A stretch of DNA of 64,000 nt from the sequence record NZ_CP119397.1. One strand, 5' to 3'. Below the pieces are notes generated by a model that saw nothing but the letters and a program-made list of their open reading frames with translations, was not told where the DNA came from and searched no databases. How positions within the stretch are numbered: position 1 is the stretch's first letter; each line of letters opens with the position of its first letter. This document shows, one piece after another, positions 9,941 to 13,625 of the stretch. A program made the position numbers and the translations under genes. The stretch is from a plasmid.

Positions 9941-10938
9941 GCCAGACCACCCAGACCAAACCCCGCCTGACCACCTCCGCGATGATTGCCTCGATTGCTG
10001 AAGAGGGGCAGGCCACGCGCGCGGCACCGTTCGGCCATGCGCTGGTGCAACTGGCGAAGCAGCACCCGGAGATTGTCGGCATGACGGCCGACCTGTCGAA
10101 ATATACTGACCTGCACATTTTCGCCCAGGCTTACCCGGAACGTTTTTTCCAGATGGGCATGGCGGAACAGTTGCTGATGGGGGCCGCGGGCGGCATGGCG
10201 AAAGAGGGGTTTATCCCGTTTGTCACCACTTATGCGGTGTTTGCCACCCGCCGCGCTTATGACTTTATCCACCAGGTGATCGCGGAAGAGCACCTGAATG
10301 TCAAAATCTGCGCGGCACTGCCGGGGCTGACCACCGGTTACGGCCCGAGCCACCAGGCGACGGAGGATCTGGCGATAATGCGCGGCATCCCGGGCATGAC
10401 AATCATCGACCCGTGCGATGCCCTGGAGATTGAGCAGGCCGTCCCGGCGATGGCCGCCCATGCCGGGCCGGTCTATATGCGTTTGCTGCGCGGCAAAGTG
10501 CCGGTAGTGCTGGACAAATACGACTACCGGTTTGAAATCGGCAAAGCGCGGCTGTTGGAAGAGGGAAATGATGTGCTGATCATCTCCTCCGGCATCATGA
10601 CCATGCGTGCGCTGGAGGCAGCGGAGAAACTGCGCAAAGACAACGTCAGCGTGGCGGTGCTGCACGTGCCGACCATCAAGCCGCTCGATGAGAAAACCCT
10701 CCTTGAACAGGCCGCCAGACCGGGGCGGCTGGTGTTGACGGCCGAAAACCACACCCAGCCAGGCGGGCTGGGCGAGGCGGTGGCTGCCCTGCTGATGCGC
10801 AATAAAGTCTGGGCGGATTTCGATGCCATCGGCCTGCCCGACGCGTTCCTCGATGCCGGCGCCCTGCCGACCCTGCACGACCGATACGGCATCTCCACTG
10901 CCCGCATGGTGGAGAAAATCAAACAGCGGCTGGGGTAA
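9937..10938 (+). CDS. Transketolase, C-terminal subunit (pyrimidine-binding plus C-terminal domain).
   Basis: Start ATG at 9937 overlapping the upstream stop. The protein runs MSQTTQTKPRL...GLPDAFLDAGALPTLHDRYGIS. Confidence 0.9.
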   Translation: MSQTTQTKPRLTTSAMIASIAEEGQATRAAPFGHALVQLAKQHPEIVGMTADLSKYTDLHIFAQAYPERFFQMGMAEQLLMGAAGGMAKEGFIPFVTTYAVFATRRAYDFIHQVIAEEHLNVKICAALPGLTTGYGPSHQATEDLAIMRGIPGMTIIDPCDALEIEQAVPAMAAHAGPVYMRLLRGKVPVVLDKYDYRFEIGKARLLEEGNDVLIISSGIMTMRALEAAEKLRKDNVSVAVLHVPTIKPLDEKTLLEQAARPGRLVLTAENHTQPGGLGEAVAALLMRNKVWADFDAIGLPDAFLDAGALPTLHDRYGISTARMVEKIKQRLG

Positions 10939-11062
10939 TCTCCCCGATTCTTTTTCCCCCGCGGCGGCGGGGGTTGTCATTCTCTTCGCCTCCCTCGCAA
11001 TGGCACCTCTGCTATAACACACAAACATTTTAAGGTTTTTCATGGCCGGACTGTTTCCTAAC

Positions 11063-11344
11063 GTGATAAAAAGTTAGAAACATAAGGGCTTACAAAAACT
11101 TTTTGAAAAAGGCGATACAAGCGGAGTCCAGGCAAAAGATGTGGATCGCATTAAACTCCGTTTGCTGGTACTTGATGAGGCGGCAACCATTGATGAATTT
11201 AAGCATTATCCCGGCTTTAAATTTCATTCGTTGAAGGGGGACAGACAAAACCTTTTTGCGATTACCGTCCGCGCCAATTGGCGGATCACCTTCGAATTTA
11301 AAGAGGGTGATGCCTATATACTTAATCTTGGGGACTACCACTGA
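11063..11344 (+). pseudogene. higB: higB-type (RelE/ParE superfamily, HigB of plasmid-Rts1 type) toxin gene with an in-frame TAG at codon 5 (11075-11077).
   Basis: The frame reads (V)IKS*KHKGLQKLFEKGDTSGVQAKDVDRIKLRLLVLDEAATIDEFKHYPGFKFHSLKGDRQNLFAITVRANWRITFEFKEGDAYILNLGDYH, matching HigB (MIKSFKHKGL...ITVRANWRITF..GDAYIL..DYH) except for the stop. The ORF track retains only the GTG-initiated 67-aa tail (11141..11344). Confidence 0.6.
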
Positions 11345-11644
11345 TGACCATGATTACCCCCCCATCCGGGCGGCTTGATCGCGGAATACCTGGAAGACTA
11401 TGGCGTCAGCCTCCGGGCCCTGGCGCGTGACCTGGATGTCTCTCCCTCGGCCTTGAGCAAGGTCGCGACAGGTAAAACGGCGATCAGTCCCGATATGGCC
11501 CTCCGCCTTGAGGCAGGGTTAGGCATTGCCGCTCGCCTGTGGCTGGCAATGCAGGCCGCCTATGACCTCAGCCGCGCCCGCGCCGTGCTCGACCTGTCGC
11601 GGGTTGTGCCCTCGCCCCACACGCACAATGCACTGACGCATTAA
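11344..11644 (+). pseudogene. higA: higA-type HTH (XRE) antitoxin. Its ATG overlaps the higB stop (TGATG), but the frame is shifted in a C7 run (11357-11363). The intact frame resumes as ...LPPHPGGLIAEYLEDYGVSLRALARDL....
   Basis: ATG at 11344 gives MTMITPP then leaves frame. The HigA-like frame (ORF 11375..11644, TTG-initiated) joins the ATG only with a +/-1 change in the C-run. The HTH is VSPSALSKVATGKTAISPDMALRL. Confidence 0.5.
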
Positions 11645-11846
11645 GCAAGAAGCCCGCGGTTATGCGGGCTTATTAACGGATATCCTTAATGATTTCCTCC
11701 CGTCATCTCTGACATTTCATACCCTTCAGCATCTTCCCGCAGATAAAAGTGATAACGGACACGTTTGCACAGCCAGGATATAGGCAAGAGGCCTCTGTAA
11801 AATTATGCTTGGCACGCTGAGCAGGCGTAAGAATCAGGAGGGAAAC

Positions 11847-12077
11847 ATGAAAACCGACGCTATGTTTAAAAAGGGCAGTAACCGGGCGGTATGCCCTTCC
11901 CGGCATGTGAACAAGGAAGGTGGCGACGAAACTGAAATCATCCAGGGTGATGATTCCACTCTGTTGCCGCAGGCTAAACCCAGCTGGGGATCGTTTGCCA
12001 AAGAACGGCGCGCTGACGCAGACTTTATGACGACACGCGAGGATGTTATCAGCAACGCGGCGCGTGTTAATCGGTAA
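11847..12077 (+). CDS. Small hypothetical protein, 76 aa (MKTDAMFKKGSNRAVCPSRHVNKEGGDETEIIQGDD...).
   Basis: Good Shine-Dalgarno sequence (AGGAGGGAAAC) 6 nt before the ATG. No recognisable family. It lies in a lower-GC gap. Confidence 0.3.
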   Translation: MKTDAMFKKGSNRAVCPSRHVNKEGGDETEIIQGDDSTLLPQAKPSWGSFAKERRADADFMTTREDVISNAARVNR

Positions 12078-12236
12078 GCTCAGGGATACCCCCTCGCTGT
12101 TTTTATCATCGGTAGACACTTGTTCCCTGCCCCACCCATTCCCCATCACAGAACAACCCATTCATTATTATTCACTACAAAAGAACAATAATCAGTTTTA
12201 CAGTAGGCTCACACTCTTAAAACAGCGAGCCGAATC

Positions 12237-13625
12237 ATGCAAATGTCCTCCGATACCCACGCATTTTCTGTTAACCCCGCCAACGGTGAAAAGATTGCCG
12301 CCTATCCGTTTGTGACGGCTGACCAGATCGATCAGGCCGTTGAGAATAACTACCGCGCTTACCAGCAATGGCGCGCCCTGCCGCTGGCGGCGCGGGCGCA
12401 AAAGCTGCGCGATCTGGCCGTCTCACTGCGTGCCCATGCGGAACCGCTGGCGCTGATGATAACGCTGGAGATGGGCAAGCCGGTGAACCAGGCGCGCGCC
12501 GAGGTGGAGAAGTCCGCCGCACTGTGTGACTGGTATGCCGAGCATGGCCCGGCGATGCTGGCAACGGAACCGACCCTGGTGGAAAACCAGAACGCGGTGA
12601 TTGAATACCGCCCGCTTGGCCCGCTGCTGGCGGTGATGCCGTGGAACTTCCCGCTCTGGCAGGTGCTGCGCGGCGCGGTGCCGAGCCTGCTGGCAGGCAA
12701 CAGCTATGTACTGAAACATGCGCCGAATGTGCTCGGCAGCGCGCAACTGATTGAGAACATTTTCCTGCATGCCGGGTTCCCGGCCCATCTGTTTACCCAA
12801 CTGAACGCCACCAATGAAGGCGTGAGCCAAATCATCAACCATCCGCGCATTGCAGCGGTGATGGTGACCGGCAGCGGCCGGGCCGGCAGCGCCATTGCCG
12901 CCCAGGCGGGTGCCGCGCTGAAAAAATGCGTGCTGGAGCTTGGCGGTTCCGATCCGTTTATCGTCCTGAACGATGCCGATCTGGATGAGGCCGTGAAAGC
13001 CGCCGTCGCCGGGCGTTACCAGAACAGCGGTCAGGTGTGTGCGGCGGCCAAGCGCTTTATCGTGGAAGCCGGGATCGCCGCGCGCTTTACGGAGAAATTT
13101 GTTGCGGCAGTACGTGCCATCAAAATGGGCGACCCGCGCGAGGCTGAGCACTATGTCGGGCCGATGGCGCGTTATGACCTGCGTGACGAGCTGCATCAAC
13201 AGGTTCAGGACTCCCTGGCACAGGGCGCGACGTTGCTGCTCGGCGGTGACAAGCTGGCCGGCGCAGGCAACTACTACCTGCCGACGGTGCTGGGCAACGT
13301 GACCCCGGAGATGACCGCATTCCGTCAGGAGCTGTTCGGCCCGGTGGCCGCCATCAGCGTGGCGCAGGATGCCGACCACGCGCTGGCGCTGGCGAATGAC
13401 AGCGAGTTCGGCCTGATGGCGACGATTTACACCGCCGATGCGCAGCGCGCAGAACAGATGGCAGCCGCGCTGGAGTGCGGCGGCGTGTTCATCAACGGCT
13501 ACAGCGCCAGTGACCCGCGCGTGGCGTTCGGCGGCGTGAAGAAAAGCGGCTTTGGCCGGGAGCTTTCCCATTTTGGCCTGCATGAGTTCTGCAACATCCA
13601 GACCGTATGGAAAAACCGCCGTTGA
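12237..13625 (+). CDS. sad: NAD(P)-dependent succinate-semialdehyde dehydrogenase (Sad/YneI-type aldehyde dehydrogenase).
   Basis: 462 aa, the same length as E. coli YneI and near-collinear with it (LCDWYAEHGPAML, AVMPWNFPLWQV, KKCVLELGGSDPFIVL, GQVCAAAKRF, HEFCNIQTVWK). Confidence 0.9.
   Translation: MQMSSDTHAFSVNPANGEKIAAYPFVTADQIDQAVENNYRAYQQWRALPLAARAQKLRDLAVSLRAHAEPLALMITLEMGKPVNQARAEVEKSAALCDWYAEHGPAMLATEPTLVENQNAVIEYRPLGPLLAVMPWNFPLWQVLRGAVPSLLAGNSYVLKHAPNVLGSAQLIENIFLHAGFPAHLFTQLNATNEGVSQIINHPRIAAVMVTGSGRAGSAIAAQAGAALKKCVLELGGSDPFIVLNDADLDEAVKAAVAGRYQNSGQVCAAAKRFIVEAGIAARFTEKFVAAVRAIKMGDPREAEHYVGPMARYDLRDELHQQVQDSLAQGATLLLGGDKLAGAGNYYLPTVLGNVTPEMTAFRQELFGPVAAISVAQDADHALALANDSEFGLMATIYTADAQRAEQMAAALECGGVFINGYSASDPRVAFGGVKKSGFGRELSHFGLHEFCNIQTVWKNRR

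Follow-up and report, generated by a model that had tools for sequence, protein, structure and literature searches.

Very probable toxin-first erosion of a higBA toxin–antitoxin pseudogene pair on a Chimaeribacter arupi plasmid

Overview of the higBA locus

The window analysed here is a stretch of 64,000 nucleotides (64 kb) of plasmid DNA from sequence record NZ_CP119397.1, and it includes a higBA toxin–antitoxin (TA) locus that, judged from its sequence, is very probably a non-functional and eroding type II pseudogene pair. The toxin pseudogene higB (11063–11344) starts with GTG, has the stop codon TAG as codon 5, and ends with TGA at 11342–11344; the antitoxin pseudogene higA (11344–11644) is of the HTH_3 / TIGR02607 type, loses its frame within 11356–11363, and ends with TAA at 11642–11644. 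The parts of the locus, the hairpins on either side, and the vapB-like gene downstream are on the + strand of the window. An earlier note on this DNA, made from the letters alone, had proposed that the locus is decaying, its toxin neutralised and its antitoxin degenerating, and comparison with 15 syntenic relatives bears this out: relatives have an intact orthologue at the same site, the toxin lesions are fixed, the antitoxin lesions are polymorphic, and the dead gene evolves neutrally. There is also a third lesion that the note did not mention, a deletion of the promoter and operators. We infer that in the window strain the locus would yield no functional product.

The window belongs to clade A, together with L001–L005, L087, and L096 (8 loci), which differ from one another by 0.1–2.8%. 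Lineage B includes L095, with an intact higBA coding for a 93-aa HigB and an overlapping HigA of the 100-aa type, and its sister L085/L086 (1.6–4.6% flank divergence), which is decayed. The lineage C loci (L091–L094) are intact, and L091 alone has flanks long enough to show its neighbours.

Deletion of the promoter and operators

Ahead of the higB GTG, the intact orthologues L095 and L091–L094 have GACTGTTTCTCAAC followed by GGGAAACAAGTGTTATACTGTTTCCCGTTGAGAAACAGGAGTTATCAAC, and exactly the latter 49 bp are gone from the window and from every clade A locus. In the intact loci the upstream region contains two TGTTTC-N7-GAAACA palindromes, which jointly form a 20-nt perfect inverted repeat, and there is an extended -10-like TGtTATACT and an AGGAG Shine-Dalgarno (SD) sequence; with the deleted stretch, both palindromes were lost along with the -10 box and the ribosome-binding site. 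The palindromes are probably HigA operators, and in the Rts1 promoter Phig the operators O1 and O2 likewise overlap the promoter (PMC12266136). The deletion endpoints are TCAACG direct repeats lying 49 nt apart in L095, and the scar in the window (11052–11063) consists of TGTTTC (11052–11057), the sole remaining operator half-site, and CTAACG (11058–11063), a fused copy of the direct repeat.

The corresponding upstream stretch of the window has no repeats, and there is no SD ahead of GTG 11063. Gene order and the stop/start overlap are those of a functional module, but the palindromes and the -10 box are deleted, and no TGTTTC-N7-GAAACA site with up to one mismatch is present in the 64-kb window, which lends no support to a HigA re-targeted nearby. 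A sigma-70 scan of 10850–12300 identified no promoter on the + strand; the scan also missed the extended -10 promoter of intact L095, so its silence is weak evidence.

The toxin gene

The frame opened by GTG 11063 reads V-I-K-S-stop-K-H-K-G-L and has the C-terminal end DYH-TGA; its translation runs VIKS-stop-KHKGLQKLFEKG...LGDYH. The amber codon (11075–11077) that the earlier note reported is present on re-reading and in the translation, and it is shared by all eight clade A loci. Phenylalanine, which had been expected at this position, is not the ancestral residue to judge from the closest intact relatives, which have TGG (Trp) and code for VIKSWKHKGL..., so that TAG corresponds to a single G-to-A transition. 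There is accordingly no uninterrupted full-length higB open reading frame (ORF) with a ribosome-binding site, codon 5 being TAG and the AGGAG SD lying inside the deleted 49 bp. We also rejected the idea that the TAG serves for recoding or has been selected; only near-identical strains share it, and the codons downstream drift neutrally.

The assignment to HigB, which was to stand or fall with a profile search, holds: with codon 5 repaired, the translation matches Pfam PF05015 (HigB-like_toxin) over the full profile length at 62.6 bits (E = 5e-17; cut-off 27 bits), and the 67-aa remnant described below scores 39.6 bits by itself, while no NCBIfam model matches the higB product. The Proteus vulgaris HigB structure 4MCT also matches (E = 8e-32), and in this alignment (fkfHslkg, nwRitf, DYH) the equivalents of the P. 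vulgaris catalytic residues His54, Arg73, Asp90, Tyr91, and His92, whose roles have been described (PMC5027501), are all retained. By these matches the product is assigned to the HigB/RelE family of ribosome-dependent mRNA endonucleases (PF05015, RelE/ParE superfamily). The resemblance to Rts1 HigB is looser than the near residue-for-residue match that had been claimed, with an identity to the Rts1 / P. vulgaris protein of only about 60–65%.

A search of a collection of 5.8 billion proteins gave no full-length HigB more than 90% identical, and the 67-aa fragment is found as five sequence variants on at least 11 contigs. A metagenome scan with RTGATAAAAAGYTRGAAACATAAGGG for further TAG or TGG alleles gave 0 matches.

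The 67-aa toxin fragment

The sole in-frame ORF left in higB is a 67-aa one (11141–11344) starting at a GTG that corresponds to HigB residue 27, as the earlier note observed; this next in-frame start lies 63 nt downstream of the TAG. The note's second reading was that the C tract of higA is a sequencing or phase-variable tract and that an N-truncated toxin is still made by reinitiation, from an SD at about 11130. No good SD precedes GTG 11141, with GGAG 14 nt upstream and only AGG at 8 nt, and in lineages B and C, L088, and Winslowiella this codon is GCG or GCT instead. The AlphaFold model of an intact HigB (P0001, 90% identical, pLDDT 92) has a strand at residues 2–5, a helix at 8–16, and the beginning of a helix spanning 24–39 within the first 26 residues, so that strand 1 and helix 1 would be predicted to be missing from the fragment, as would the first part of helix 2. 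Together with the loss of the promoter and SD, the shared TAG, and the neutral evolution of higB, these features tell against the second reading; a reinitiated 67-aa toxin is unlikely, and the ORF is a leftover, not a designed product.

This reading describes a live and switchable module, in which a phase-variable C tract turns HigA ON and OFF and the 67-aa HigB from GTG 11141 is still toxic. The tract does differ in length among strains (C8 or C7), one more -1 slip in the window (C7 to C6) would give back a 99-aa frame, and the 67-aa ORF is open and retains the catalytic His, Arg, and Asp-Tyr-His. Such a module would nonetheless have to operate after deletion of the higB promoter, operators, and SD, from a start codon that is poorly served and not kept in the other lineages, with part of a compact alpha/beta fold missing, and in spite of neutral higB evolution inside clade A; moreover, with a live toxin alongside, switching the antitoxin OFF would kill the cell and not regulate it. 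The strains do contrast C8 in frame with C7 out of frame; the window is also minus one A, and in L087 the gene is broken far from the tract, by a 10-nt deletion. With the toxin dead, phase variation of its antitoxin would have no output. We regard a switchable module as extremely unlikely, and the A/C tract is more probably a mutational hot spot than a phase-variable one.

The antitoxin gene

The higA ATG at 11344 overlaps the higB stop in a TGATG arrangement, as noted earlier, and the frame from this ATG (MTMITPPSGRLD...) runs to a stop at 11428–11430. The HigA frame (LPPHPGGLIAEYLED...) proceeds one base off and ends at 11644. The frame loss reported within a C7 run (11357–11363) is correctly placed: a single A (11356) is followed by seven Cs, and the +1 frame continues from there to 11644, so that the gene is out of frame after codon 4. 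When the frame is corrected, the product matches TIGR02607 (antidote_HigA, an equivalog model) at 85.6 bits, with a cut-off of 47.7 bits, and HTH_3 at 38.8 bits.

Intact alleles read ATT AAC CCC CCC CAT at the tract, that is AA followed by C8, and the A1C7 form of the window (11356–11363) represents a net 2-nt deletion, with one A and one C gone. The suggestion that C8 would mend the gene therefore holds in that a C is missing, but C8 by itself is insufficient since an A is missing too, and AA plus C8 is required. The tract is lineage-specific, with CCC CCA CAC in the outgroups, and the A1C7 form is found in no other locus examined. An intact higA ORF from the overlap ATG is present in L001, L002, L003, L005, and L096 of clade A (A2C8, 100 aa), as well as in L095 and L091. 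Three clade A loci have a broken gene, each in a different way: A1C7 in the window (-2), A2C7 in L004 (-1), and a 10-nt deletion near the 3' end in L087, which leaves a 94-aa product (P0131).

In the intact alleles a GAGGA SD lies 9 nt ahead of the higA ATG, and a transcription start inside higB near TATATACT (about 11312–11321) could conceivably drive higA. The two halves of the operon contrast sharply in G+C content, at 42% for higB and 64% for higA, with 59.5% for the whole window.

An 89-aa ORF with a TTG start (11375–11644) remains in the window and covers the HTH domain, with the first 11 HigA residues gone. It has no usable SD, GGGCGG lying only 1 nt from the TTG. This ORF is identical to NCBI entry WKZ94735.1 / WP_304483943.1, 'HigA family addiction module antitoxin (plasmid) [Chimaeribacter arupi]', and the remnant has thus been entered in the public annotation as an intact antitoxin and not as a pseudogene; the 67-aa ORF is likewise called HigB-like by gene callers in related contigs. 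These entries expose an annotation problem, in that TA remnants are deposited or called as genes.

Replicon and reliability of the sequence

The locus had been taken as chromosomal. WKZ94735.1 is annotated on a 250,769-bp C. arupi plasmid, and the locus probably lies on the conserved 251-kb C. arupi megaplasmid p251 rather than on the chromosome; p251_DSM115072 was obtained by hybrid Illumina/Nanopore assembly with Polypolish polishing, and the plasmid is reported from every C. arupi genome (PMC10587679). The locus was recovered in several assemblies of C. arupi (heterotypic synonym 'Nissabacter archeti'). L004 (Logan SRR24578022) codes for the same 89 aa, yet differs from the window by 0.7%. 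Among PLSDB plasmids, the best matches are intact higBA loci, 75% identical, on enterobacterial plasmids.

Another reading is that of an assembly or sequencing artefact, in which higA would really be AAC8, the frameshift a homopolymer miscall, and TAG a base-call error. The identical 89-aa ORF stands on a hybrid Nanopore/Illumina plasmid assembly, homopolymers are the classic Nanopore error, and A1C7 is unique to the window. That assembly was short-read polished, though, and the TAG is present in seven other related assemblies, which include Illumina-only isolate genomes and Logan read sets; TAG and the 49-bp deletion are shared by all C. arupi / 'N. archeti' assemblies examined, so neither is a sequencing error. 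Other frameshifts in the tract are seen in L004, which is independent, and in L085/L086. In a comparison with five related assemblies, about 9.8 kb of flanking sequence in the window showed no further indel in a gene, so the higA break is not part of a general homopolymer-error problem, and an intact higA would still leave the toxin lesions in place. An artefact is therefore very unlikely.

Decay in a second lineage

The decayed L085/L086 locus has the same 49-bp deletion as clade A, and its higA is A2C7, a C8-to-C7 slip at the same hot spot; the second ATG of higA is now ATA. Its higB lesions are different ones, with a 1-nt deletion at codon 29, the changes I2R, R70C, and Y85H, and loss of the stop codon. 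We rejected the possibility that lineages A and B owe the 49-bp deletion to one common event: the deletion is read as recurrent because the promoter of the sister locus L095 is intact and the single-nucleotide polymorphisms (SNPs) beside the junction are lineage-specific.

The divergence among the lineages is mosaic. L091 higB is near lineage B (3–5%) and L091 flanks are nearer clade A (6–9%), while L095 higA is 10–14% from all others. These distances suggest recombination in the cassette among lineages, which is also possible for the shared 49-bp deletion.

The nearest higBA locus outside this synteny (L088:1479–2062 / L090) has 85% nucleotide identity and lies in a mobile context, with an rve integrase fragment and a RES-Xre TA pair. 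In the otherwise intact L088 HigB, the Arg of the conserved ITVRANW motif is replaced by Cys, as it also is in decayed L085. A second and apparently intact higBA paralogue is present on another contig of C. arupi 2016-Iso3 (L051:4001–4276); its HigB shows 58% identity, GGAACA-type palindromes of its own lie upstream, and it comes with a separate HigA. This paralogue is a possible source of cross-talk with an orphan HigA.

Selection on higB and higA

Between lineages dN/dS is about 0.1 for higB and higA alike, which indicates a mostly constrained history and recent decay. Inside clade A, the variable codons of higB comprise 7 nonsynonymous and 2 synonymous changes, which fits neutrality (binomial p = 0.59; neutral expectation about 3.8:1).

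Some observations weigh against a wholly dead locus. All of the HigB catalytic residues are still there, and an amber suppressor tRNA combined with read-through from the transketolase genes upstream could in principle yield traces of full-length toxin where higA is intact; in the 64-kb window tRNA-Cys is the only tRNA gene, and there is no amber suppressor. The higA changes within clade A are 1 nonsynonymous and 4 synonymous (p = 0.019 in a binomial test of neutrality), or 3 and 5 when variants P0121 and P0246 are added (p = 0.03), and higA may have kept some function after the death of the toxin.

The latter point is the basis for an alternative in which HigA is retained by selection as an orphan, either as an anti-addiction factor against HigB brought in on plasmids or as a regulator, expressed by read-through or from a weak internal promoter, with the window strain being a recent loser of HigA. 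At least five clade A assemblies have an intact 100-aa higA even though higB has been dead since their common ancestor, the higA changes contrast with the 7 nonsynonymous and 2 synonymous ones of higB (Fisher p = 0.09), the intact alleles provide higA with an SD of its own, and near relatives of HigB are common on Pantoea, Erwinia, and enterobacterial plasmids. Anti-addiction is moreover an established idea, exemplified by ccdEch of Erwinia chrysanthemi (Saavedra De Bast et al. 2008, cited in PMC2654758). Against retention, the added variants bring the nonsynonymous share to 3/8. The operators are deleted with none elsewhere in the window, the main promoter is lost with no sigma-70-like site on the + strand in the scan, and higA is broken in the window itself. 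The hint of lingering higA constraint is weak and is contradicted by three separate frameshifts among about nine clade A strains, with a fourth in lineage B. On balance we consider selective retention of an orphan antitoxin unlikely.

Model for the decay of the locus

Erosion of the whole pair accommodates these observations. The ancestor at the site was probably an intact module, as is still found in L095 and L091, with two operator palindromes around an extended -10, an AGGAG sequence, and a gene for a 93-aa HigB overlapped by that for a 100-aa HigA. Two lesions, in either order and now fixed, would then have disarmed the toxin in the C. arupi lineage: a 49-bp slipped-misalignment deletion between the TCAACG repeats, removing the operators, -10 box, and SD, and the TGG-to-TAG nonsense change at higB codon 5. 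Once HigA had lost both its toxin partner and its operators, higA would have become dispensable, and it appears now to be disappearing strain by strain through the -2, -1, and -10 nt lesions of the window, L004, and L087.

It is conceivable that this decay is channelled by built-in fragile sites and is not random, with operator-palindrome-mediated promoter excision as a recurrent one-step means of disarming and HigA kept for a while as an orphan anti-addiction factor. The 6-bp direct repeats bracket the 20-nt inverted-repeat operators, and the same 49-bp deletion and the same C8-to-C7 slip occur in two lineages whose closest sisters are intact. This extension is speculative and its chances of being correct are low; if true, promoter excision would be a 'safe' disarming route for the host or replicon, maybe favoured once the megaplasmid is an indispensable chromid.

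Relationship to known systems

The locus most resembles the HigB-HigA system of Rts1 (P. vulgaris; PDB 4MCT, 4MCX, 4YPB), which is likewise toxin-first with a stop/start overlap. HigB is 92–93 aa with the same catalytic equivalents, HigA is about 100 aa with an HTH_3 domain and an N-terminal HPG motif, and intact orthologues of the locus have two palindromic operators over the promoter, like O1/O2 in Phig. It differs from Rts1 in its limited protein identity (about 60–65%), in an operator half-site of TGTTTC/GAAACA that is not the Rts1 sequence, and in being a pseudogene pair with a regulatory deletion, an amber codon, and a frameshift instead of a working module.

Decay of ccdO157 within E. 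coli has been reviewed (PMC2654758). There, as here, a vertically inherited TA islet at a fixed site decays in one species with the toxin going first; ccdO157 belongs to the CcdAB family of gyrase poisons, whereas the window replicon is probably a megaplasmid, the higB lesion is fixed species-wide, and the higBA series includes a promoter/operator deletion. Mine and colleagues reportedly found in 2009 that the chromosomal ccdO157 degenerates within the species, with the toxin inactivated and the antitoxin lasting for a while.

A survey of Photorhabdus TA systems counted pseudogenisations affecting the toxin only (185), both genes (186), or the antitoxin only (8), and there too the neighbourhoods stay conserved as the TA genes decay (Belot et al. 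2026, PMC13617665). The survey counts ORF status, and the higBA locus adds base-level lesions, including the recurrent 49-bp repeat-mediated deletion and the C8 slippage. As for ccdEch, the intact HigA of sister strains could hypothetically play a similar part by counteracting a related toxin from a plasmid; in ccdEch both TA genes are intact and the pair has been shown experimentally to block post-segregational killing, and the window antitoxin is broken.

The locus thus follows the documented erosion of type II TA systems, toxin first and antitoxin later, and reveals no new mechanism or system. It does provide a base-resolved natural series of the death of an addiction module, from intact through promoter/operator deletion and toxin nonsense to repeated and differing antitoxin frameshifts, with parts of the path repeated in two lineages. 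The series supports the toxin-first order of loss reported by large surveys and points to repeat- or palindrome-mediated deletion and homopolymer slippage as the mutational routes; its added value lies in the resolved lesions, the two recurrent hot spots, and the mis-annotated 89-aa remnant.

Flanking genes and elements

The genes around higBA are an MFS transporter, an SDR, and the transketolase N and C subunits on one side, and an aldehyde dehydrogenase on the other. This order is the same in 12 related contigs, and L091 keeps only part of it. A terminator-like G+C hairpin (10956–10973), also present in L095, lies after the transketolase C-subunit gene (end at 10938) and upstream of higBA; its T tail is weak, so read-through is possible. 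A second hairpin (AGCCCGC-GGTTAT-GCGGGCT; 11651–11670) follows right after higA and is conserved in all relatives as the stem of an operon terminator. In L095 its counterpart has an intact T tail and is scored as a terminator; in the window a segment bearing a vapB-like gene has taken the place of the T tail. An Rfam search of 10800–12300 (E <= 1) returned nothing, so no known RNA element accounts for the region.

The window, L002, L004, L096, and L085 carry the vapB-bearing segment, which is about 430–450 bp long (about 11671–12130 in the window) and has an 11-bp deletion in L004; L001, L003, L005, L087, L095, and L091 lack it. The vapB-like gene (11847–12077) codes for a 76-aa antitoxin, has a strong AGGAGG SD, and is about 50% identical to plasmid vapB genes (tblastn, E = 1e-16); the 76-aa product has no match in a Pfam search, and there is no vapC behind it. 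It is a second eroded TA remnant at the same intergenic spot.

In L091 (2595–3607), a lineage C locus with intact higBA, the genes upstream have themselves suffered deletion: of the MFS gene a 138-aa fragment is left, adh_short and Transketolase_C matches fall within one 198-aa product, and the SDR and transketolase genes appear to have been fused through a large deletion.

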